Shown here in pieces: positions 8,054 to 32,327 of a stretch of DNA of 64,000 nt. Origin of the DNA: Thermoanaerobaculia bacterium. Lineage in GTDB: Bacteria; Acidobacteriota; Thermoanaerobaculia; Gp7-AA8. The number at the start of each line of letters is the position of its first letter. Position 1 is the first letter of the stretch. The DNA lies in assembly GCA_017883235.1 (NCBI GenBank), contig JADGNY010000011.1, forward strand, positions 20 to 64,019, given 5' to 3'. The translations under genes were made by a program, and so were the position numbers. The notes under the pieces are model-generated. The model made no database searches and was not told the origin of the DNA. It worked only from the letters and a program-made list of their open reading frames with translations.

Positions 8054-9249
8054 TCACTATTCGGACGCTCGATGACCTTTCGCTTTCGCGGGGCGCGCGC
8101 GTCTTCTATCGCGTCGACTACAACGTTCCGCTCGACGGGACGCGGATTACCGATGCCACCCGTATCGAGGAGACGTTGCCGACCCTGCGCCGGCTCCGCA
8201 ATGTCGGTGCGGCCGTCGTGATCGCCAGCCATCTCGGCAGACCGAAGGGCGAGCGGAAGCCGAAGTACTCGCTGGAGCCGATCCGAGCGAAACTGGCCGA
8301 GCTCTTAGGCGCCGAGGTGCAATGGGCGGATGACTGTGTCGGCGACGACGCCGATGCCAAGGCATCGGCTCTCGAGCCGGGCCAGATCCTCCTGCTCGAG
8401 AACCTGCGTTTCCACGCCGGTGAAGAAGCGAATGACCGTACCTTCGCGGAGCAGTTGAGCATGCTTGCGGACTACTACGTCAATGATGCCTTCGGAGCAT
8501 GTCACCGCGCACACGCCTCGATCGATGCCCTGCCGCGACTCTTCGACAAGGCGCGTATCGCGGGCGGTCTTCTGCTGGCGAAAGAAATCGAGTTCCTGCA
8601 GAAAATCACCAACGTTTCTGACCGACCCTTCGTCGCCCTCCTCGGCGGCGCCAAGATCGCCGGCAAGATCGAACCGCTCGAAGCGCTCGTCAAACTCGCG
8701 GACACGGTCCTCGTCGGTGGCGGAATGGCGAACACGTTTCTGGCCGCCCGAGGCGTAGCCATGGGCGGCTCGCTCGTCGACAACGATTCGATCGAAGTGG
8801 CGAAGCGGATCACGAACGTGATGTTGCCGGTCGATCTCATCGTCGCTGACGATCTGAAGGAGCCGAAGACCATCGAGACCGTCGACGTGTCGAGCGGTCT
8901 GACCGCCGGACAGAAGGCCTTCGACATCGGACCGAAGACGATCGCCGCGTACGACGCGGTACTGAAAGCCGCGCGCACGATTTTCTGGAACGGGCCGATG
9001 GGCGTGTTCGAGAACGAAGCCTTCGCGAAGGGAACGATGGCCATGGCGCGATCGGTGGCCGAGGCCGGAGGGACGACGGTCGTCGGCGGCGGCGAATCGG
9101 TCGAAGCCGTGAAAGCGTCCGGTTACGCCAGCCGCATCAGCCATATCTCCACCGGCGGCGGCGCATCGCTGGAGTTCATTTCGGGGGAAACGCTGCCGGG
9201 AGTGGAGGTGCTGAGGTCAGAAAGCAGAAGGCAGAAGGCAGAAGGATGA
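8050..9249 (+). CDS. pgk: Phosphoglycerate kinase (C-terminus extended 11 aa into a repeat)
   Basis: The ATG overlaps the gap stop (ATGA). Motifs RVDYNVPLDG, ASHLGRPKGE and STGGGASLEF are present. The last residues, RSESRRQKAEG, are encoded by the (CAGAAGG)n element. Confidence 0.95.
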   Translation: MITIRTLDDLSLSRGARVFYRVDYNVPLDGTRITDATRIEETLPTLRRLRNVGAAVVIASHLGRPKGERKPKYSLEPIRAKLAELLGAEVQWADDCVGDDADAKASALEPGQILLLENLRFHAGEEANDRTFAEQLSMLADYYVNDAFGACHRAHASIDALPRLFDKARIAGGLLLAKEIEFLQKITNVSDRPFVALLGGAKIAGKIEPLEALVKLADTVLVGGGMANTFLAARGVAMGGSLVDNDSIEVAKRITNVMLPVDLIVADDLKEPKTIETVDVSSGLTAGQKAFDIGPKTIAAYDAVLKAARTIFWNGPMGVFENEAFAKGTMAMARSVAEAGGTTVVGGGESVEAVKASGYASRISHISTGGGASLEFISGETLPGVEVLRSESRRQKAEG

Positions 9250-9289
9250 ATCCTTTCACCTTCTGCCTTCTGCTTTCTGCCTTCTGCCT
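9218..9289. repeat. Heptamer-built hairpin, (CAGAAGG)4 - 13-nt loop - (CCTTCTG)4
   Basis: CAGAAAGCAGAAGGCAGAAGGCAGAAGG ATGAATCCTTTCA CCTTCTGCCTTCTGCTTTCTGCCTTCTG. It covers the pgk stop codon and is a possible terminator. Confidence 0.85.
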
Positions 9290-9295
9290 TTGATC

Positions 9296-9853
9296 ATGCC
9301 TCAGGAAATCGAAGTCAAATTCGCCCTCAAAGACCGCGCCGATCTCGTGCGGAAGCTGCACGACATCGGCGGGCAGCGGCTCTATCCCGAGACCTTCGAG
9401 GACAACATCGTCCTCGACCGCCGCGGCGAGCTGCGGACCAAAGGCTCCCTGCTGCGCGTCCGCAAGTTCGGCAAGTACTCGATCGCCACCTACAAAGGGC
9501 CGATGTCGATCGAGGGAGGGGTGAAGTCGCGCGAGGAAGTGCAGACCGGCGTCGAGAGTTTCGAGCTCGCCATCCAGCTTTTCGACGCCCTCGGATACAA
9601 GCCGGTCTTCCGCTATCAGAAGTTCCGCGAGGTCTGGCGCATCAAAGAGGTCGAAGTGGTCCTCGACCGCACCCCGATCGGCGACTACTTCGAGATCGAA
9701 GGCCCGATCGACGTCATCCGCACCATCGCCGCCGAGCTGGGGATGACGATGGACCAGGCCATCCGGCAGACATACTCGGATCTGTACCGGCTGGCTCGCC
9801 GGACGCGGCCGGATCTTGGGGAGAACATGATCTTTCCGCCGGAGGCGCTTTGA
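9296..9853 (+). CDS. CYTH-domain protein (CyaB/ThTPase-like triphosphate tunnel enzyme)
   Basis: N-terminal EIEVKF (ExExK signature). The ~180-aa size and alternating-strand pattern are typical of CYTH. A TTG at 9290 is an alternative start. Confidence 0.8.
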   Translation: MPQEIEVKFALKDRADLVRKLHDIGGQRLYPETFEDNIVLDRRGELRTKGSLLRVRKFGKYSIATYKGPMSIEGGVKSREEVQTGVESFELAIQLFDALGYKPVFRYQKFREVWRIKEVEVVLDRTPIGDYFEIEGPIDVIRTIAAELGMTMDQAIRQTYSDLYRLARRTRPDLGENMIFPPEAL

Positions 9854-9936
9854 AGGCAGAAGGCAGAAGGCAGAAGGCAGAAGGATGATGCGTTTCCTTC
9901 AGCCTTCTGCCTTCTGCTTTCAGCCTTCTGCCTTCT
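9851..9936. repeat. Second (CAGAAGG)n heptamer hairpin
   Basis: TGAAGGCAGAAGGCAGAAGGCAGAAGGCAGAAGG ATGATGCGTTT CCTTCAGCCTTCTGCCTTCTGCTTTCAGCCTTCTGCCTTCT. It starts on the CYTH stop codon and ends 1 nt before the ATG at 9938. Confidence 0.85.
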
Positions 9937-9937
9937 C

Positions 9938-10948
9938 ATGAGGGCCATGATCCTCGCCGCCGGCTACGGCACGCGTCTCCGGCCGGTGACGTACACACTG
10001 CCGAAGCCGGTCGTGCCGTTGTGCGGACAGCCGCTCGTGGCCTGGGTGATCGAATCGTTGCTTGACTTCGGCATCCGCGATTTCATCGTCAACCTGCACC
10101 ATCTTCCGGAGCCGATTGAGCGGCTTCTTCGGGCCCGGTTTGCGGACGCGCGGTTCGCGTTTTCATACGAACTGGAGATTCTCGGGACGGGCGGCGGCGT
10201 ACGAAAGGTGCGCAGTCTTCTAAAACGGGATCCCGAGTTTTTCCTCGTCAACGGTGACACGATCCAGTTCCCGCCATACGACGCCTTGCGCGCAAGGCGG
10301 AACGAAGCGCTGGCCGTGTTGACGTTGCGCCATCCACCGCCGGGCGATCGCTTCACCCCGGTCTACTTCGATGAGGACCGCGTTACCGGCTTCGGCAAAG
10401 GTACCGGAGAGGCGCTGATGTTCTCCGGCACACACCTGATCTCGAACCGCATCTTCGACTACCTTCCGGACAAAGACTTCTCCGGCATCGTCGACGAGGT
10501 CTATCAGCCGCTCATCGACAGCGGCCGCGAGCGGATCGCGGGCGTCGTCGACGACGGTCTCTGGTTCGACATCGGAACGCCGCAACGCTACGTGGCCGCA
10601 TCGCGCACGCTGCTCGGCCTCACCGTACGTGGCCGGCTCGCGCCCGCGCGCGGCACGCACGTCGCGGGCGACTCGCTGTTCGATGACACGGCAGTCGTGA
10701 CCGGCGCCATGTCGCGCAGCATCGCCGGTGCTCGCAGCGTCATCGAGGGGACATTGGACGACAGCGTGGTCTGGGACGACTGCCGGATCGCCAAGGGCGT
10801 CGTCCTCGACTCCTGCGTCGTCGCGCACGGTGTGGAGATTGCCTCGCCGGTCGAGCTGCGTAACGTCCTGATCTGCCGCGATGATGCAGCCATCCCGCGC
10901 GAAGGAGAGCACCGCTTCGAGCACGGCCTCGTCCTTCTGGACATTTGA
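9938..10948 (+). CDS. Sugar-phosphate nucleotidyltransferase with C-terminal hexapeptide (LbH) domain
   Basis: MILAAGYGTRLRPVTYTLPKP nucleotide-binding loop. The C-terminal region has an isoleucine-patch-like periodicity. Confidence 0.85.
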   Translation: MRAMILAAGYGTRLRPVTYTLPKPVVPLCGQPLVAWVIESLLDFGIRDFIVNLHHLPEPIERLLRARFADARFAFSYELEILGTGGGVRKVRSLLKRDPEFFLVNGDTIQFPPYDALRARRNEALAVLTLRHPPPGDRFTPVYFDEDRVTGFGKGTGEALMFSGTHLISNRIFDYLPDKDFSGIVDEVYQPLIDSGRERIAGVVDDGLWFDIGTPQRYVAASRTLLGLTVRGRLAPARGTHVAGDSLFDDTAVVTGAMSRSIAGARSVIEGTLDDSVVWDDCRIAKGVVLDSCVVAHGVEIASPVELRNVLICRDDAAIPREGEHRFEHGLVLLDI

Positions 10949-10978
10949 CGTTCGATGGCCCTGTTCTAGACTCTGCTC

Positions 10979-13012
10979 ATGTCGATCCACACGCGCGTCG
11001 ACGCGCTCCTGACCCGGCTCGCCTCCCAGCAGCAATTCCCGACCCAGGGGCAGACGATCTTCGTCGACCTCGAGCGGCGGGAGGTGCGCCACGCCTGGAT
11101 TCCCCTTCGCGTGGTCAACGCTCTTCTCGGCGGGCGCGGCGTGAACATGTTTCTCCTGCACAACCTGCTCGATGAAACACTCGAGCCGATTCATCCTCAT
11201 GTCCCGCTCATCTTCGGCACCGGCATCCTGACGTCGATGGTCCCTTCGGCATCGCGCGGCAACGTCACCTCGTGGTCGCCGGAGTCGCGGGTGTTGATGG
11301 ATTCGAACGCCGGCGACTACTTCCCGTCGTTCATGAAGCTCAACGGGATCGATCACCTCGTCCTCTACGGGAAAGCTCCGGCCTGGACGCTGCTGCATTT
11401 CGAGGGGAATGAGCCTCGATTTGTCGATGCCGCGCCGTGGGTCGGGCTCGACAACCTCGATCTGCGCGCGAAGATCGCCGAAGACTTTCACGGAGTCGAA
11501 GGGAAGGACTACGGGCTGGCGGCCATCACCACGGCCGGCGAGAACCTCGTCCTCTGTTCCGGGATCATGGCCGGTCCGAAAGCGATCTACGCCCGCGGCG
11601 GCCCCGGCGCAAAGATGGGGGCGCTCAACCTCAAGGCGGTACTGATTCAGGGACGCCACGCCGACCTCACCACCGCCCGCCCCCACAAGCTCCGCAACCG
11701 GGATGTGGCGTTGAAGCTCCTCAATACCTCGGTGGTGAAGAATGCCCTGAAAAAACGCGGTACGCCGTTCCTCTACAAACCGTCGCGCATGCTCGGCGCG
11801 ATGGGGACGAAGAACAATCAGGAAACGACCTGGACCGACAAGCTCGACGCCGAGAATATCGACCCGTACCGCCCGGGCATGGAGGGCTGTTTCGCCTGCC
11901 CGGTCAACTGCCGGCCGTTGAATGACATGTCGGACGATCGGGTGTCGGGTGTCGGGGGTCGGGAGTCGGAGCTCACAGGTGCTGTACCTGGCTCTACGAC
12001 CCCCGACCCCCGACCCCCGACCCCCGTCCCCGACAAATACATCAAAGGCGACGGTCCCGAGTACGTGACCCTCGGCAAGTTCGGTCCGAACGTCGGCATC
12101 TCCGAGGTGACGCAGGTGCTGCGTCTGAACAACATCTGCAACGACCTCGGACTCGACACCGCCTCCTCCGGCTCGGCGATCTCCTGGGCCATGGAGCTTT
12201 ACCAGCGCGGCATCATCACCCGCGAGCAGACGGAGCTCGATCTGACCTGGGGCAACTACGACGCCATCGAGCAACTTCTCTTCATGACCGCGAAGCGCGA
12301 AGGCTTCGGCGACGTCATCGCCGATTCGTCGCAGGCCGTCGCGAACGGCAAGTATCCGGTCGAGTCGCTCGACTACCTGATGGCCGTGAAGGGTCTCACG
12401 CAGAGCGATCCGCACGATGCCCGCATCCTCAAAGCCTTCGCCCTCGGCCTGGCCGTCGCCACGCGTGGCATGGACCACCTTCGCAACCGTGTGACGCTGG
12501 AGATCAACGCCAAGATCAACGACTCCCCCGATTTCAAGGCCGAGCTATACGGCGGACAGGTCTCCGCGGAGCCGAACAGCTACGAGGGCAAGGAGATCGC
12601 CGTCCGCCGCTGCGAGAACATCTACGCCGTCGGCGACTCGGTCGGCATGTGCCGTTTCACCACGCAGCTCTTCAACTCCCCCTCGCTGCCGGGTTACGAG
12701 GAGTTCGCCGACCAGGTAGCCAACGTCACCGGCATCGAGCTGACGAAGCAGGCCATCGACGGCATCGGACTCAACGTGATGGGCGTCGAGCGTCTCATCA
12801 ACGCCAAACTCGGCGTCACCCGCGCCGACGACACGCTCCCCAAACGCTGGTTCGAGGAAGCGATCGGCGTCGGCCCCTACAAAGGCGAAAAAATCGACCG
12901 CGGCGAGTTCGACAAGATGCTCTCGCGCTTCTACGAGGTCTCGAATCTCACCGAAGAAGGAATGCCGAAGCCGGAATGGCGTGAGGAGCTGGAGACGGTG
13001 CTGACGGCGTAG
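10979..13012 (+). CDS. Aldehyde:ferredoxin oxidoreductase family (tungsto-/molybdopterin enzyme)
   Basis: 677 aa. AFOR N-terminal domain, Cys motif CFACPVNC, GPEYVTLGKFGPN, long alpha-helical C-terminal domain, and neighbouring MoaD-like and MoeA genes. Confidence 0.85.
   Translation: MSIHTRVDALLTRLASQQQFPTQGQTIFVDLERREVRHAWIPLRVVNALLGGRGVNMFLLHNLLDETLEPIHPHVPLIFGTGILTSMVPSASRGNVTSWSPESRVLMDSNAGDYFPSFMKLNGIDHLVLYGKAPAWTLLHFEGNEPRFVDAAPWVGLDNLDLRAKIAEDFHGVEGKDYGLAAITTAGENLVLCSGIMAGPKAIYARGGPGAKMGALNLKAVLIQGRHADLTTARPHKLRNRDVALKLLNTSVVKNALKKRGTPFLYKPSRMLGAMGTKNNQETTWTDKLDAENIDPYRPGMEGCFACPVNCRPLNDMSDDRVSGVGGRESELTGAVPGSTTPDPRPPTPVPDKYIKGDGPEYVTLGKFGPNVGISEVTQVLRLNNICNDLGLDTASSGSAISWAMELYQRGIITREQTELDLTWGNYDAIEQLLFMTAKREGFGDVIADSSQAVANGKYPVESLDYLMAVKGLTQSDPHDARILKAFALGLAVATRGMDHLRNRVTLEINAKINDSPDFKAELYGGQVSAEPNSYEGKEIAVRRCENIYAVGDSVGMCRFTTQLFNSPSLPGYEEFADQVANVTGIELTKQAIDGIGLNVMGVERLINAKLGVTRADDTLPKRWFEEAIGVGPYKGEKIDRGEFDKMLSRFYEVSNLTEEGMPKPEWREELETVLTA
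11939..12034. repeat. 96-nt heptamer hairpin (CGGGTGT/CGGGAGT arms vs CGACCCC arms) inserted in frame in the AOR gene
   Basis: CGGGTGTCGGGTGTCGGGGGTCGGGAGTCGGA - 26-nt loop - CGACCCCCGACCCCCGACCCCCGACCCCCGTCCCCGAC. It encodes RVSGVGGRESELTGAVPGSTTPDPRPPTPVPD between the Cys motif and GPEYVTL. Confidence 0.85.
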
Positions 13013-23590: not shown

Positions 23591-23785
23591 GCGCTTCGCG
23601 CGTTATCGGTTGTCGGTTATCGGTTGTCGGTTGGTCGGTTGAGCGAGGAGGCCCTTTTTGCTCGACCGACGACCGACAGCCCAACAACCGACAACCGACA
23701 ACCGACAACCGACAACCGATAACCGATAACCGATAACCGACAACCGACAACCGACAACCGACAACCGATAACGCGCGAAAGCGCA
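23591..23785. repeat. Large asymmetric heptamer hairpin, (GGTTRTC)~5 vs (CCGAYAA)~15, capped by GCGC-TTC-GCGC mini-hairpins
   Basis: GCGCTTCGCGCGTTATCGGTTGTCGGTTATCGGTTGTCGG...(CCGACAA/CCGATAA)n...CCGATAACGCGCGAAAGCGC. It starts 2 nt after the stop of the 22539-23588 gene. Confidence 0.85.
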
Positions 23786-24078
23786 GAACCGGTAGTGTTC
23801 CACGTGTCACAACCGTTGTGCATGGCTGCTCGAAGTCCTCGGACGGCCGAAAAAAACCAGCCTCGAGCGCCAGGAATCGCCGCTTTTCCGCAGGCCTCCC
23901 ATCCCCCAGCCCCCAAGCGCAAGTTTTTTCCGGCTGCGTCTGCTATTTCCTTCGGAATCGCATCGTAAATCCTGCGGAAAAAGGACTCGCCAAATCTGCA
24001 TGAGAATCATGTGCAAAACATGTGGAAAAGGCGTTGATTTTCTGCGGATTACGCGTCAAAGGACTGTCGAAAACCCTG

Positions 24079-24087
24079 TGGATAACC
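24079..24087 (-). promoter_or_regulatory. Perfect DnaA box (TGTGGATAA = TTATCCACA on the minus strand)
   Basis: Exact 9-mer. Same-orientation near matches lie at 24022-24030 (TGTGGAAAA) and 24144-24152 (TGTGGACTA). Confidence 0.4.
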
Positions 24088-24205
24088 TGCGTAGAACTGG
24101 CGGAATAGCCGCGGAGAACCATTCGAAAGCCCGTCTACATCCTGTGGACTAACTCGTTGATTCAGCGAATACTTACGCTTCCTGTTGTGTTTCCACCAAT
24201 TACGA

Positions 24206-24221
24206 CCACAACATCTTGTGG
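24206..24221. promoter_or_regulatory. NrdR-box-like palindrome upstream of nrdJ
   Basis: CCACAACATCTTGTGG fits the NrdR box pattern acaCwAtATaTwGtgt. A weaker second box, GCACAACATATGACTG, lies at 24264-24279. TTGACA at 24231-24236 with TACGTT 17 nt downstream sits between them. Confidence 0.4.
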
Positions 24222-24469
24222 CCACAGACTTGACATCCGTTTCCACCCGGCGTACGTTGTCCGGCACAACATATGACTGGAGAGCGCGGGGAGGATTGAT
24301 GAAGGATTTGAAACACGTTTCCCGTCTTGCCACCCGGAGTCCACGGCGATCCGTTTCACTGCAGATTCGCGAGTATCAGGTCACCGTCAAAGTCAAGACA
24401 CCAGTCCCTCAGGCCCGCCCCTCCGGCGCGCGCTTGCTGGCTCGCTAACAAACTACACAACTCACCCGG

Positions 24470-24493
24470 AGCGCCCCGCGTAGGGGCGCTTTT
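24470..24493 (+). terminator. Intrinsic-terminator-like hairpin in the nrdJ leader (possible attenuator)
   Basis: AGCGCCCC GCGTA GGGGCGCT followed by TTT, 25 nt upstream of the AAGGAGA RBS and the ATG at 24518. Confidence 0.4.
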
Positions 24494-24517
24494 GCGTCGA
24501 ATCAAGGAGAACAGGCC

Positions 24518-27352
<2,835 letters not shown>

Positions 27353-27415
27353 CACAAAGCAGGTTGGAACCCCTAATGCGTGTCGGGCCACGCGAATAAA
27401 AGGGCTACTAGAGAA

Positions 27416-28609
27416 ATGATGCCGACGCTTAGCTCAACGTATGACCAATGGATACCCGGTGTTCTTTCGAAGATTCAGATCAAAGCATTAATCGCCGACG
27501 ACTTCATTACAAACACGTCGTCTGAGCCTAGTGCATTCGATTACTCCTCGATGGATCTTCATTTGACGGAGGAAGGGTATCGGCTACCCAATGGCTCGAT
27601 AAAACCCTCCGGTACCAGGTACCTCCACCACGTAAAGCTTTCAAGTAAATGCGAAACACTGTCACCCGAAGGTGACGGGTCATTTCTTCTTAAACGGCAG
27701 CACACGTATCTCTTCAAACTCTCGGAGAGACTTGTGCTCCGCGAAGTCATCCGAGAGATGGGCGGTCTTTACGGGCAAGCAACAGCAAAGAGTTCAGTCG
27801 GTCGCGTCGATGTTCTGGCGCGGCTCATCGTAGACGGCTCACGTGATTATGAGATCTTCGCCCCTGAGGATTTTACTGACCGTGACGGCAAGGGTGATAT
27901 GTATGTTGAGATCACCCCCATTACATTCGATGTGAAGCTACGCCCCGGAGGATCAGTCAATCAGTTGCGCCTTTTTTTGGGTGCACCTAGTGAAGTAGAG
28001 ATGAGGGGCGATGTTTTGTATCGTAGGGTGCTGCGCACCGCGGGCAACAACTCTGATGGATCGCTCTCCGTCAACCTCGACGATACTACTATCTGTGGAG
28101 AATCGACTGCGGCGTTTGTCGCGACGCCTCCTTCGGAGCAGAACTCGAGAGAACCGGTTCGGCTATGGAAAGATGACAAGATCGAGAAGCCTAACCCTAG
28201 GCTCTTCTGGAGTTTACTGAAAGCCGACGAGTACAAGCGGCTTACCATCGCGAAGGATAATTTCTACATTCTGCGTTCGAAGGAAGCTATCGCTCTACCC
28301 AAAGGTGTGGCAGTGTATTGCCGCGCATCAGACGAAACCATCGGTGAAATGCGGATTCATTATGCGGGATTTGTCCACCCTCTCTTCGGGTACAATCGCA
28401 CTGACGGTAAAGTCGGGACGCCGCTAATCTTTGAGGTCAGAGGGCACAACGTGAACGTGAGTCTGGTGGACGGCGAAAGAATGGCGAAACTGACATTCTA
28501 TCGGATGTCTCAAGATGCAGTGCAGGATGCTGAGACCGATATGTCGTACAACGATCAAGAGCTGCAGCTTTCGAAATTCTTCGCCGATTGGAGCCCGTCT
28601 CAGAATTAA
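27416..28609 (+). CDS. Tandem-domain dCTP deaminase-like protein (long DCD / PF06559-like architecture)
   Basis: Half 1: GVLSKIQIKALIADDFI, SSMDLHL, AKSSVGRVDVLARL, MYVEITP..GSVNQLRLF. Half 2: FYILRSKEAIALP, IHYAGFVHPLFG, GTPLIFEVRGHNVNVSL..MAKLTFYRM. These parallel the Dcd motifs (GRSSLARLG, VLE, QL.F). The gene is markedly AT-richer than nrdJ. An alternative GTG start lies at 27380. Confidence 0.7.
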   Translation: MMPTLSSTYDQWIPGVLSKIQIKALIADDFITNTSSEPSAFDYSSMDLHLTEEGYRLPNGSIKPSGTRYLHHVKLSSKCETLSPEGDGSFLLKRQHTYLFKLSERLVLREVIREMGGLYGQATAKSSVGRVDVLARLIVDGSRDYEIFAPEDFTDRDGKGDMYVEITPITFDVKLRPGGSVNQLRLFLGAPSEVEMRGDVLYRRVLRTAGNNSDGSLSVNLDDTTICGESTAAFVATPPSEQNSREPVRLWKDDKIEKPNPRLFWSLLKADEYKRLTIAKDNFYILRSKEAIALPKGVAVYCRASDETIGEMRIHYAGFVHPLFGYNRTDGKVGTPLIFEVRGHNVNVSLVDGERMAKLTFYRMSQDAVQDAETDMSYNDQELQLSKFFADWSPSQN

Positions 28610-28625
28610 AGACGTCTGTATCGCT

Positions 28626-29744
28626 ATGATAAACACGCAAGCCGATATTCGTGTGATTCGCCTTAGCGCGAGCGACGTCTCGCATGGGACGGACCATCTT
28701 CGTGCTTTTGAAAAACTAATTCTGACGAATGAAGATAGCTATCCGAGAATCAATAGATGGCTGCACGAAAAGGTTTTGGATGGTGTCAAGACCGGCGAAC
28801 GGGTGGCGTTCGTTGGCTACAATGGTTCACAGCCAGCCATCTCAGCAGTGGTAAAGCGCGGCAAGTGTTCGAAGTTTTGTCATCTCAGGATTGATCATGG
28901 TCTACAAAACGTCAATCTCGGCGATATGTTTTTTGCCATGATGTCGAGTGAAGTGAAGAAGTTCGCATCCGAAGTTCACTTCACACTGCCGGAGAGTTTG
29001 TGGGCTGAGAAGCGTGGTTTTTTTCAGAGCTTCGGGTTTTCTTCTGCTGCCGTCTCTCGTACGCAATATCGTCTTGGAGAAGTTGAGTTACGGTGTTCTG
29101 CTTCCTTCGAAAACGTGTGGTCAGCGACGCGTCGAAAATTGCCGAAGCTCGCACGCACTTTTCGCTCTGGTGGCTACCACCTTGAGATGCCGCTACTGAT
29201 GTCGCTCAAGCCATGTTTCGCGGAAGCTATCTTCAATGGAATGAAACGCTACGAGATACGTAAAAAGTTTTCCCGTCGATGGCTCGGAGCTCGTGCCGCG
29301 ATTCTCGCGACGCGCCCGACCAGCGCTCTTTTTGGAGAAGTGACAATTGGGACGATTCGGCATGCGCCCCCGTCAACCATTTGGAGCAGCTTCGGAGACT
29401 CGCTAGGTTGTTCCGAGTCGGAATTTGTCGATTATTGCGTTGACGCGAAGGAAGTGTTTGCTATTGAGCTAACCGAAGTAACTCCGTATCTGTTTCCAGT
29501 TCCCTTGCGGCAATTGGCCTATCTTCTGGATCGCGAGCTGCAACCGCCACAATCTTATTCTGATCTCTCTGAATCGCCATCGTGGCGCGAAGCGGTTTCA
29601 CTAGCTGCGATTCTCCACGGTAATTTGACCGTCCCTCCGAAGCTGGTGGCGCATCATCGTCTTCAAGACGTGTGGTTACCCAACGAGACAAAGACTTTGT
29701 TTGACTACGAACGGCGTCTGTCATTGTCACCGCCTGTCAGTTAA
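28626..29744 (+). CDS. GNAT-like acetyltransferase / ASCH (PUA-like) domain fusion protein
   Basis: The N-terminal ~170 aa have a GNAT-like pattern (VAFVGYNG..ISAVVKRG...LGDMFFAMM..EKRGFFQSFGF). The C-terminal part, PLLMSLKPCFAEAIFNGMKRYEIRKKF..AAILATRP..LFGEVTIGTI..IWSSFG..SESEFVDYC..VFAIEL, fits the ASCH pattern. It starts 16 nt after the previous stop and is low in GC. Confidence 0.6.
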   Translation: MINTQADIRVIRLSASDVSHGTDHLRAFEKLILTNEDSYPRINRWLHEKVLDGVKTGERVAFVGYNGSQPAISAVVKRGKCSKFCHLRIDHGLQNVNLGDMFFAMMSSEVKKFASEVHFTLPESLWAEKRGFFQSFGFSSAAVSRTQYRLGEVELRCSASFENVWSATRRKLPKLARTFRSGGYHLEMPLLMSLKPCFAEAIFNGMKRYEIRKKFSRRWLGARAAILATRPTSALFGEVTIGTIRHAPPSTIWSSFGDSLGCSESEFVDYCVDAKEVFAIELTEVTPYLFPVPLRQLAYLLDRELQPPQSYSDLSESPSWREAVSLAAILHGNLTVPPKLVAHHRLQDVWLPNETKTLFDYERRLSLSPPVS

Positions 29745-29854: not shown

Positions 29855-30589
29855 ATAGAGGTAGGGAGAACCCGTTAGGGCTCCCCCTCCCTCCGCACCG
29901 GACGTGCGGATCTCCCGCATCCGGCTCTCCAGTTGGCGGTCCTGTTCAGGATAGATGTACACGTGGGACTTGCATCGCGGTGAAAGAGGTCCGACGTGCT
30001 GGCTCATGCGAGCCGCTCTGTCACCAGAGTCGATCTACATCGGTTGCTCACCGGCCCTGCGCGTATGAACTCGAATTCGTCTGCTCATATCTGTCGCGTT
30101 CTAGCCTTTCGGCAATGGACGATCAGCGCGTTTCCGGCTTGCTCCCGATCCACCTTCCTGCCTCCCTTTGCTCCACGCCCGTTACGACGCTTCCTTGCTC
30201 CTATGGAGGCTCTGACTCCCGCCCGCCTTTCACTCGCGCGGAGGGGTATCCCCGATTCACGACACCTGAATCTTTCTGTCGTTCTGTGTCCAACCACCCG
30301 ATGTCTTCCCATGTCCGCTTTCCCTTCGCTCGTTTCTTCTCGCGTTCTGGGGTCGTCACCTTAGGACCGTTTCTCGTCTGCGCCCACAGGTTCTCTCGGC
30401 TTCGCCACTGGCTAGCAGGCTCGCCAAGACACCAGGCCGAATCGACTTCCTCTCGTACGGACCGACAGACTCGCCTTCCGTTGCTCCCCACCTCGCCTTC
30501 CGGCGACGCAGTTACCGTCGGCTTTCAACCAGTCGAGCGTTTGGTTGAGAGTGTTTTCACCTCCTCTTCAGATGTGCTCTCTGGCGCAC
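29855..30589 (-). mobile_element. ORF-less group II intron (IIC-like), 735 nt
   Basis: The minus strand starts GTGCGCCAGAGAGC. Near the 3' end is a domain V-like hairpin, GAGCCGGATGCGGGAGATCCGCACGTCCGGTGC (AGC triad, 2-nt bulge). It is followed by a domain VI-like stem with a bulged A (CCCTACCTCTAT) 7 nt from the end. The intron sits 3 nt downstream of the GC hairpin CCCCCGCCTGAAGGCGGGGG. Its boundaries are defined by comparison with the empty site at 31775-31825. No RT-like ORF is present; ORF 29845-30813 is antisense noise. Confidence 0.75.
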
Positions 30590-31019: not shown

Positions 31020-31086
31020 ATCTGCGTACATCTGCGCTATCTGCGGATGGATGTTTTATCCGCAGATGACGCAGATGTACGCAGAT
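31020..31086. promoter_or_regulatory. 67-bp nested palindrome (ATCTGCG repeats), possible operator of the antitoxin gene
   Basis: ATCTGCGTACATCTGCG..ATCTGCGGAT..ATCCGCAGAT..CGCAGATGTACGCAGAT, ending 40 nt upstream of the ATG at 31126. Confidence 0.4.
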
Positions 31087-31125
31087 GAGTGCCGCGTGGC
31101 TCGGGAGGGCAGGCGGGCGGCGAGA

Positions 31126-31425
31126 ATGTCGTTCATGGCACGCGACCTGGAGACGATGGTTCGTAACGCGTTGGAGCTCTCGGAGAGCGATCGGGCGACG
31201 CTGGCCCGCCTGCTGATCGAGAGCCTGGAGCCGCCGCCTGATCCCGAGGTCGAAGAGCTTTGGGCGGTCGAGGCCGAGCGTCGCTGGCAGGAGATTGAGT
31301 CGGGCGCCGTTCAGGCTGTCCCGTGGGAAGAGGTTCGTGCGCGATTGTTCGCCGGGGATGATCAGATCGGGGTTGACCCGGAAGCCGATTGTGCTCAACC
31401 GAAGAAGCGTCGCCTTGCTCGGTAG
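31126..31425 (+). CDS. Putative addiction-module antitoxin component (TIGR02574/Unstab_antitox-like), orphan
   Basis: LELSESDRATLARLLIESLEPPPDPEVEELWAVEAERRWQEIESGAVQAVPWEEVRARL is the typical pattern. No toxin ORF lies downstream. The 3' tail runs into the TAGGGCCATGGCCCTA repeat. Confidence 0.7.
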   Translation: MSFMARDLETMVRNALELSESDRATLARLLIESLEPPPDPEVEELWAVEAERRWQEIESGAVQAVPWEEVRARLFAGDDQIGVDPEADCAQPKKRRLAR

Positions 31426-31438
31426 GGCCATGGCCCTA

Positions 31439-31712
31439 TCGCGGAAGAGAAAATGCTTCTTGCAGAGGAGTTTTCGCTTCCTGCAGAGGCCGAAACTCCT
31501 CTGACAGAGCACTTTTGGCTTCTTTCAGAACACCGAAATCCTCCTCGATAGGGCCATGGCCCTACCTCAGAAGGAAACCTGTTCTGAGGGAACAAAAAAC
31601 GCTCCTCAAGAGGAGAATCTGCTTCTGCGAAAGCGAAACTGTTCTCGAAGAACGATAGACGCTCTCGAGGAACGAAGAACGCTGTCGAGGAACAAAAAAC
31701 GCTGTCGGAGCG
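31439..31712. repeat. Degenerate 20-22-nt periodic array of mini-hairpins, split by the palindrome TAGGGCCATGGCCCTA (31423-31438 and 31549-31564)
   Basis: Example units: AGAGGAGTTTTCGCTTCCTGC / AGAGGCCGAAACTCCTCTGAC / AGAGCACTTTTGGCTTCTTTC / AGAACACCGAAATCCTCCTCG. These are followed by about 7 further ~21-nt units ending ...AACAAAAAACGCTGTCGGAGC. Confidence 0.5.
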
Positions 31713-31825: not shown

Positions 31826-32138
31826 GTTGTCACGCGGAACTTGCGAGCGGAGGTAACGCCTTGCATACTCGGGATATGCCCGCCGCCGGCAAGCACTTTC
31901 TGGACGACTTCGAGTCCCTTCCCGATCCGAGAAGCGGGAGGTTCTGTCGAATCTTCTCAGGAGCTCACGGGACATCGACTACTCCGAGGTCGGTGACGAG
32001 GAGTTGGTGGCGGCTGCCGATGCGGTCTTCATCGAGTACGACCGGATGGAATGGAACGATTGAACGTGCCGAATCGCGGGGAGGACGATCCCCGTAACAG
32101 GCCGCTTGCCCCTTTGGGCGAACGGCGACAACTACTCC

Positions 32139-32327
32139 GAGGCAGTTAACTGCCTCTCGGAGGCAAATCACTGCCTCTCGGAGGCAAATCACTGCCTCCC
32201 GGAGGCCATTAACTGCCTCTCAGAGGCCATTAACTGCCTCCCGGAGGCCATTAACTGCCTCTCGGAGGCCATTCACTGCCTCCCGGAGACCGTTAACTGC
32301 CTTTCGGACACCGTTCTCTGCCTCCTG
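32139..32327. repeat. Tandem array, 9 x 21 bp of palindromic units (GAGGCAGTTAACTGCCTCTCG type)
   Basis: Nine head-to-tail 21-mers were counted. Unit 1 contains the perfect palindrome GAGGCAGTTAACTGCCTC. The array explains the N-terminal CLSEA repeats of ORF 32106-32909. Confidence 0.9.

Follow-up and report, generated by a model that had tools for sequence, protein, structure and literature searches.

What does a pair of AT-rich genes do when it sits directly behind the gene for a B12-dependent ribonucleotide reductase? The window analyzed here, a 64-kb stretch of contig JADGNY010000011.1 from a Thermoanaerobaculia bacterium, carries such a pair immediately 3′ of nrdJ: P1, a tandem-domain protein resembling deoxycytidine triphosphate (dCTP) deaminases, and P2, a fusion of a GNAT-fold domain with an ASCH domain. 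We found that P1 and P2 form an obligate unit and that this unit is horizontally mobile, and the comparative-genomic support for the pair is unusually strong. We propose that the two proteins act as one functional unit on the cytosine deoxynucleotide pool and, as to its purpose, tentatively favor a toxin/antitoxin-like, dCTP-depleting conflict (abortive-infection) module, a possible answer that we weigh below against several others. The genes and domains concerned are the following, with P1 taken from its ATG start.

24518 to 27352, forward strand: nrdJ, class II (B12-dependent) ribonucleotide reductase (open reading frame; orthologue in locus L007)

27416 to 28609, forward strand: P1, tandem-domain dCTP-deaminase-like protein, 397 aa (Pfam; sequence and fold match to 2R9Q)

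27458 to 27982, forward strand: N-terminal half of P1 (DCD_N), with KSSVGR at 27788-27805 and without motif 3

28175 to 28582, forward strand: C-terminal half of P1 (DCD_C), with YAGFVHPLFG, His321 (28376-28378), and FEVRGH, Glu340 (28433-28435)

28626 to 29744, forward strand: P2, GNAT-ASCH fusion, 372 aa, ATG start, MINTQ (family profile, AlphaFold2 fold)

28647 to 29159, forward strand: GNAT-fold domain of P2, about aa 8-178 (alignment, fold matches)

29187 to 29621, forward strand: ASCH domain of P2, about aa 188-332 (PADLOC PDC-M11B, 5GUQ profile, Foldseek)

An earlier sequence-only reading of this locus had described two co-oriented, AT-rich open reading frames (ORFs) 16 nt apart behind nrdJ, and both the ORF coordinates and the base composition bear this out: the guanine-cytosine (GC) fraction was 0.51 in the pair, as against 0.63 elsewhere in the window and 0.638 in nrdJ, which places the pair ~12 GC points below its flanks. 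The motifs it had quoted, including KSSVGR, FEVRGH, YAGFVHPLFG and GMKRYEIR, are all present. The nrdJ stop codon occupies 27350-27352, and P1 begins either 27 nt further on at a GTG (27380) or 63 nt further on at an ATG (27416, MMPTLSS), with a common stop at 28609; the ATG is preferred because the homologue alignment begins near there. Both ORFs lie far beyond chance because each has hundreds of conserved homologues, with 1299 found for P1.

The linkage of the two genes was examined from either side. A scan keyed on P2 and covering one genome per GTDB species (185,579 species genomes) found P2 relatives in 68. Sequence 5′ of P2 was available for 64 of these loci, and in 63 of them the gene immediately 5′, on the same strand, was P1 or a P1 remnant. 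A second set, keyed on P1, comprised 80 metagenome contigs retrieved via P1-specific peptide patterns, 71 of which had more than 270 nt downstream; P2 was the next gene 3′ of P1, on the same strand, in every one of these (71/71). The distance matrices of P1 and P2 were correlated (r 0.78, Mantel p 0.001). An all-against-all comparison of the ORFs in 72 loci revealed no third conserved gene, the next clusters being antisense or confined to at most 7 loci. The sequence-only reading had treated the two genes as a pair, and their co-conservation, which extends to both gene orders and one natural fusion, confirms it.

An exhaustive HMMER search, which returned only 169 representatives at E ≤1e-30, brought to light both the fusion and a more distant subfamily. 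The fusion, P0365 (724 aa; L164 6001-8175, Logan SRR22808038), joins P1 and P2 in one ORF on a single contig, and could be either a genuine gene fusion or the product of a stop codon erased by sequencing error. The reversed order comes from the distant GNAT-ASCH subfamily, which likewise adjoins a tandem DCD gene, with the DCD first in one case and the GNAT-ASCH first in three. One such locus (L165 2420-5069) encodes a MerR-family regulator, then the GNAT-ASCH, then the DCD, the last two overlapping by 29 nt, and this module stands beside dciA-dnaN-dnaA, near replication-origin genes.

P1 matched the Pfam families DCD_N (E 8e-23; 81.5 bits, cut-off 21.4), DCD_C (E 6e-28; 97.9 bits, cut-off 22) and DCD (E 1e-27), with DCD_N and DCD_C both above their gathering scores and in N-to-C order. 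Over its full length it matched PDB 2R9Q, the tandem dCTP deaminase of Agrobacterium tumefaciens, with an E of 3e-27 as a single sequence and 1e-43 as a profile (residues 11-378). The AlphaFold2 model of P1, with a predicted local distance difference test (pLDDT) score of 90.6, retrieved 2R9Q as the top Foldseek match (E 1e-28, template-modeling (TM) score 0.87-0.88), followed by canonical Dcd and Dcd-dUTPase structures. No Dcd-like match was found outside P1 within the 64-kb window.

The active-site motifs of P1 are divided between its halves. KSSVGR, the Ser/Arg phosphate-binding motif equivalent to R110-S111-S112...R115 of E. coli Dcd, lies in the N-terminal half, while motif 3 and the catalytic Glu lie in the C-terminal half, the same split as in 2R9Q; E340 of FEVRGH aligns with the catalytic E138 of Dcd and is invariant in 50 sequences. 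The hhalign alignment of P1 with E. coli Dcd was weak (E 0.26) and served for motif mapping alone, with the Dcd sequence checked against 1XS1. Within motif 3, an invariant His321 (YAGFVHPxFG) gives H-P-x in place of the D-P-G found in Dcd (D128) and 2R9Q (FFDPGFG). The DCD proteins associated with the distant GNAT-ASCH subfamily keep both YAGFAHPxFG and FEVRGH, and because they carry the same replacement, His-for-Asp is the hallmark of GNAT-ASCH-associated deaminases. P1 scored 173.1 bits against the NCBIfam equivalog PRK07559, which represents the housekeeping orthologue and has a cut-off of 283. Judged by these motifs, P1 most probably deaminates dCTP to deoxyuridine triphosphate (dUTP); having lost the Asp of motif 3, it would not go on to a dUTPase step.

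P2 as a single sequence stayed below the Pfam cut-offs for ASCH (E 0.011; 16.8 versus 21.2 bits) and Acetyltransf_10 (E 0.036; 14.5 versus 23.6 bits). A family profile built from 50 sequences matched the Zymomonas protein ZmASCH (5GUQ) at 2.7e-23, and Foldseek searches with the AlphaFold2 model (pLDDT 87.9) returned ZmASCH for the C-terminal half (E 1e-11, TM 0.81-0.85) and dozens of GNAT structures for the N-terminal half (E 1e-8 to 1e-5, probability 1.0, TM ~0.6). The Dcd, GNAT and ASCH assignments of the sequence-only reading are thus upheld by profile and structure searches, and two of its comparisons are not. For the GNAT domain it had pointed to enzymes of the TmcA type, which write N4-acetylcytidine; the Foldseek matches are generic small-molecule acetyltransferases, with no TmcA- or NAT10-like structure among them. 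It had also invoked YqfB for the ASCH domain; the octapeptide GMKRYEIR (29238-29261; GxKxxExR) assigns this domain, by motif, to the GKER/ZmASCH type, distinct from the YqfB (GKTR) type.

Both halves of P2 retain conserved residues. The ASCH octapeptide and a PPQS motif are intact, and K207, E210 and R212 are invariant in the 50-sequence alignment. In the GNAT half, K83, C85, H86, HFTLPE (118-123), FFxSFGF and Q147-Y148-R149 are invariant across the family, and the acetyl-CoA loop in the window reads QNVNLG, with the first Gly of Q/RxxGxG/A replaced. Distant P2 relatives have the canonical RGxGxG/A loop, and one of them (P0473) matches Pfam Acetyltransf_1. A fold search of BFVD found no viral counterpart over the full length of P2.

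These residues bear on one alternative, a two-step chemistry at the N4 position of cytosine, in which P2 would write (GNAT) and/or remove (ASCH) an N4-acyl group, on cytosine nucleotides or on the cytosines of DNA or RNA, and P1 would deaminate the resulting or competing dCTP species, in modification, sanitation or phage counter-defense. It largely coincides with the modification role that the sequence-only reading had put forward. The invariant Lys and Glu of the octapeptide are the catalytic dyad for N4-acetylcytidine removal in ASCH erasers, and overexpressed GKER-group ASCH proteins strip N4-acetylcytidine from tRNA (preprint 10.64898/2026.02.27.708502). There is also precedent for an ASCH-type hydrolase acting on decorated DNA cytosines in defense, as BapA of the Brig3 operon takes glucose off glucosyl-5-hydroxymethylcytosine DNA (preprint 10.64898/2026.02.25.707755), and GNAT-EVE proteins were proposed to acetylate a DNA base by Iyer et al. 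2013, as cited in Bell et al. 2020 (PMC7641849). In addition, conservation is high along the active-site strands of the GNAT domain, with the canonical acetyl-CoA motif in distant relatives; a fusion and a variable gene order are typical for enzymes of the same pathway, and the His-for-Asp change in P1 suggests an altered substrate. Against this, in E. coli Dcd structures the residue replaced by His touches the sugar and leaves the base untouched. It would be paradoxical for one polypeptide both to write a mark and to erase it, free N4-acetylcytidine was not hydrolyzed by ZmASCH, the closest solved relative, the pair has no conserved polymerase, kinase or glycosylase partner, and the GNAT fold matches are generic, unlike TmcA/NAT10. 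We consider this explanation unlikely.

The distribution of the pair is sparse and wide. The 68 GTDB loci keyed on P2 are all metagenome-assembled genomes from about ten phyla, mostly Acidobacteriota, with other hosts including Myxococcota, Planctomycetota, Bacteroidota, Ignavibacteria, Latescibacterota, Desulfobacterota, Binatota, and Alpha- and Gammaproteobacteria. Identity of the pair is flat, at 40-50% across phyla, while its neighbors vary between loci, and some flanks contain integrases, transposases or restriction-modification methylases. In each of the 42 loci compared, AT content was higher in the pair than in the flanking DNA, with a mean difference of 8.8 points. Between the window (positions 27416-29744) and the syntenic locus L007 (positions 8787-11089), identity amounts to 92% for nrdJ and 62% for the pair, and in both the pair lies ~10-12 GC points under its flanks; the AT-richness is being maintained, and is more than the trace of a recent transfer.

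Phage DNA carries the genes as well. A 43-kb IMG/VR contig has the whole pair directly 5′ of the terminase large subunit gene, and a T4-like phage contig (L075 9947-11005, IMGVR_UViG_3300045016_000140) has a full-length P2 and no P1. The latter contig encodes portal Gp20, a prohead protease and Gp23 capsid, with P2 placed between a 1077-aa ORF and the prohead protease gene, and its P2 has HFTLPL in place of the GNAT motif HFTLPE.

Loss of the two genes is asymmetric. P1 was missing or truncated, with P2 retained, in six loci (L014, L044, L057, L063, L075 and L077), whereas P2 was missing beside P1 in none and P1 was never found alone. Taking together the linkage, the His specialization, the mobility, the phage carriage, this asymmetry, the kinship of P2 with GevA (the annotated antitoxin of a phage- and prophage-borne module described below) and the precedent of anti-phage dCTP deaminases, we tentatively read the pair as a dCTP-depleting conflict module. 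P2 would then be a sensor or brake in complex with P1, a complex suggested by the natural fusion P0365. The ASCH pocket may read or process a cytosine-type ligand, either nucleic acid or nucleotide. P1 would be restrained, whether by the GNAT domain or by its very association with P2, until phage infection or some other trigger set it free. It would then exhaust dCTP and bring dUTP to excess, so that replication stops, and the lone P2 of the T4-like phage could be a stolen antidote. An argument from a toxin-first gene order was dropped, as the order is reversed in the distant subfamily.

Several observations weigh against this conflict reading. In L069 and L071, P2 is frameshifted beside an intact P1, possibly through assembly errors. 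Variable gene order and fusion appear to fit a two-step enzyme pathway at least equally well, and both P2 domains look catalytic by their motifs, which would be superfluous in a pure inhibitor. A search of P1 against PADLOC (2.0), which includes the known defense dCTP deaminase, found no family at E values up to 1. The sequence-only reading had proposed a survey for enrichment near defense genes, and such enrichment appears weak: the 220 immediate neighbors scanned with PADLOC and Pfam are mostly housekeeping genes, matches to defense families are scattered (restriction-modification methylases, DUF5131, capP, and single matches to DRT, pAgo and PD-T4-6), and the pair lies outside typical defense islands. 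In addition, ThyX adjoins the pair in one locus and dnaA-dnaN in one, which together with nrdJ suggest DNA-precursor metabolism.

Two contexts near the pair recur. DUF5131 genes (Gp37/Gp68-like; PADLOC PDC-M30B, PDC-M41B) adjoin the pair in three unrelated loci (L026 12056-12862, L032 8027-8758 and L042 11045-11764), and a gene for a ScoMcrA-like DNA-sulfur-binding and HNH protein, resembling type IV restriction, lies directly 3′ of a distant DCD/GNAT-ASCH pair (L168 7045-7866; three related contigs).

The housekeeping neighbors raise a further explanation, an accessory module of the deoxynucleoside triphosphate (dNTP) pool, in which P1 would make dUTP, and from it deoxyuridine monophosphate for thymidylate, out of the dCTP supplied by the B12-dependent reductase, with P2 regulatory or ancillary, the whole being a horizontally spread add-on or dcd replacement. 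It is supported by nrdJ, which lies directly 5′ of the pair on the same strand in the window, L007, L012 and L066, three separate lineages by pair similarity; such adjacency exceeds chance by far. The nrdJ orthologue in L007 (92% identical) matches Pfam Ribonuc_red_2_N, Ribonuc_red_lgC and TSCPD. The gaps are short (18 nt in L066, 27-63 nt in the window), and a search of the window gap for promoter-like or terminator-like sites found none. The ThyX and dciA-dnaN-dnaA neighbors, one locus each, point the same way, and P1 is well conserved, with the Agrobacterium tandem DCD as its closest solved relative. The sequence-only reading had suggested a functional link to nrdJ; its recurrence in four loci adds support to the association, and a functional link may exist.

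The dNTP-pool explanation nevertheless leaves much unaccounted for. With P2 relatives in just 68 of the 185,579 species genomes, close relatives manage without the pair, and P1 lacks the host-like composition, wide clade presence and conserved synteny of a housekeeping dcd, its adjacency to nrdJ in four loci notwithstanding. The consistent AT-richness, the score of P1 under the PRK07559 cut-off, its subfamily-specific His and the presence of the pair or a lone P2 on phage contigs all count against a metabolic gene, and an obligate GNAT-ASCH partner, kin of a prophage antitoxin family, would be unexplained. We therefore judge it somewhat unlikely, if the strongest of the alternatives. With host-like GC in nrdJ beside an AT-rich pair, the conserved nrdJ 3′ end could be a preferred landing site or the arrangement could be selected.

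The conflict reading and the N4 chemistry can also be joined. In this form, the GNAT-ASCH protein would write, erase or sense an N4-acyl cytosine mark, on nucleotides or nucleic acids, and thereby gate the His-variant dCTP deaminase, so that acyl-cytosine chemistry would switch on the collapse of the nucleotide pool. It would be part of a widespread and hitherto unrecognized immunity of soil bacteria that phages counter with their own GNAT-ASCH copy. We regard this combination as doubtful, and less probable than either the N4 or the dNTP-pool explanation.

Should the pair be a conflict module, it would provide immunity through dCTP depletion in a second way, with an architecture unrelated to the first, and a first functional handle on modules of GNAT and PUA-like (EVE/ASCH) domains, which are experimentally uncharacterized according to Bell et al. 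2020 (PMC7641849). It is in any case a compact two-gene system in which to approach the role of bacterial GKER ASCH domains, whether they cleave RNA, erase N4-acetylcytidine or act as sensors. The invariant His-for-Asp replacement defines a new, easily recognized subfamily of the dUTPase/Dcd proteins, whose substrate may differ from dCTP, and the recurrent placement 3′ of nrdJ would make the pair an unusual accessory module wired into dNTP supply. If its role is metabolic, the pair would still show that enzymes of the dcd type can depend on a GNAT-ASCH protein, a dependence that to our knowledge has no precedent in nucleotide metabolism.

The surroundings of the pair in the window were also inspected. 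Downstream, the sequence-only reading had noted an ORF-less group II intron, repeat arrays and an orphan antitoxin; all are present, and the intron lies on the strand opposite to the pair.

29855 to 29929, reverse strand: group II intron domain V/VI (RF00029) of an ORF-less intron just 3′ of P2 (Rfam match)

31051 to 31425, forward strand: orphan antitoxin-like ORF, Unstab_antitox PF09720 (E 8e-17)

31643 to 31707 and 32135 to 32308: tandem repeats with units of 20 nt and 21 nt

No reverse-transcriptase ORF for the intron was found downstream of P2. The segment from 29745 to ~32400 is an insertion relative to L007, between P2 and a conserved 160-aa gene, and the intron and the antitoxin ORF are neighboring elements outside the module, the latter being mobile debris. 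Upstream, 7-nt tandem repeats (23602-23772; ACCGACA in ~15 copies, GTTGTCG in ~5 copies) lie between genes for DUF2157-type membrane proteins and nrdJ. The stretch 5′ of nrdJ (23750-24500) is also GC-poor (GC 0.53-0.54), and no cobalamin riboswitch scored above the Rfam threshold in it.

How does the pair compare with known systems? The sequence-only reading had recognized no named system in it, and this holds: PADLOC has no model for P1, and the DCD and GNAT-ASCH pairing is undescribed in full-text literature searches, whose hits were coincidental cyanophage papers, although a prior mention, for example in Iyer et al. 2013, is possible. Its implied novelty stands for the pairing and falls for the ASCH half, which belongs to a candidate-defense family: residues 188-316 of P2 matched PADLOC PDC-M11B with an E of 2.4e-22, while the PDC-M11A models matched neither P1 nor P2. 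We traced PDC-M11 to proteins annotated as GevT toxin and GevA antitoxin, with GevT matching PDC-M11A (2e-133) and GevA matching PDC-M11B (6.8e-52). In the lambdoid E. coli phage PhiR47_2 (L158 2950-4378, PV340567.1), GevT and GevA occupy the rexAB slot after cI and overlap by 23 nt. Pseudomonas, Rahnella, Paenibacillus and Lactobacillus carry the module too, on plasmids and in prophages; in prophage Lj965 of Lactobacillus (L162) it has a cluster of four tRNA genes on one side and the terminase genes on the other. The full-text literature searched yielded no paper on GevT/GevA. Operons of (PIN-)GNAT-EVE and ASCH proteins have been predicted to be toxin-antitoxin or defense systems with uncharacterized components (Bell et al. 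2020, PMC7641849), and from the matching descriptions we infer that PDC-M11, that is GevT-GevA, corresponds to these operons, with GevT as the GNAT-EVE fusion.

This kinship invites the opposite assignment of roles, with P2 as a toxin whose GNAT domain would acetylate aminoacyl-tRNA or tRNA cytidines under guidance of the ASCH domain, in the manner of TacT/AtaT-type toxins and of the predicted GNAT-EVE ones, and with P1 as antidote or helper. The predicted toxin-antitoxin status of GNAT-EVE proteins with ASCH partners (PMC7641849) and the annotation of the GNAT-type GevT as a toxin would support it, and P2 is colinear with GevT over 160 columns, as seen in one pairwise and two profile-profile comparisons. 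The profile match is, however, insignificant (hhalign E 0.02-0.035, probability ~2%), so that homology with GevT beyond the GNAT superfamily is doubtful; GevT has no similarity to P1. An apparently intact lone P2 occurs in L014 and on the lytic-type phage contig while P1 is never alone, and a nucleotide deaminase of 397 aa would hardly be expected to serve as an antitoxin. We consider a toxic P2 highly improbable.

The pair is thus akin to PDC-M11 without being a member. GevA shares a homologous ASCH domain with P2 (34% identity, with the GxKxxExR and PPQSY motifs in common), both systems combine GNAT and PUA-like barrels in a tight, mobile two-gene module, and both occur on prophage or phage DNA. 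By contrast, in GevT/GevA the large GNAT protein includes an EVE-like barrel and is followed by a small ASCH protein from a gene of its own, whereas the pair has GNAT and ASCH in one polypeptide and a dCTP deaminase as the partner gene. With the tandem dCTP deaminases (PF06559 and PF22569; PRK07559; 2R9Q), P1 shares the two-half architecture, the motif split and the fold, and differs in its ~25% identity to 2R9Q, its score under the equivalog cut-off, its invariant His for Asp, its constant GNAT-ASCH partner and its AT-rich, mobile setting as opposed to that of a core gene.

Anti-phage dCTP deaminases reportedly defend bacteria by depleting dCTP. P1 resembles them as an accessory enzyme of the Dcd superfamily, and dCTP depletion is the effect that we propose for it. 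The known anti-phage system nonetheless consists of one gene, whose product bears a kinase-like domain at its N-terminus, whereas P1 combines a tandem DCD architecture with a separate GNAT-ASCH partner and has no PADLOC match.

Among ASCH proteins, ZmASCH, which cleaves single-stranded RNA (PMC5615036), and the other GKER proteins share with P2 the octapeptide Lys, Glu and Arg and the equivalents of Gln127 and Ser128 (PPQS). P2 departs from ZmASCH in its GNAT fusion and at the equivalents of Tyr47 and Lys53, where the window protein has Leu and Ser, although Tyr is the consensus residue of the family at the former position. BapA, likened here by description, has an ASCH-like barrel as P2 does, one that works as an enzyme on a decorated cytosine within an anti-phage operon; unlike P2, it has two barrels and no GNAT domain, and its partner is a DNA glycosylase where that of P2 is a nucleotide deaminase.

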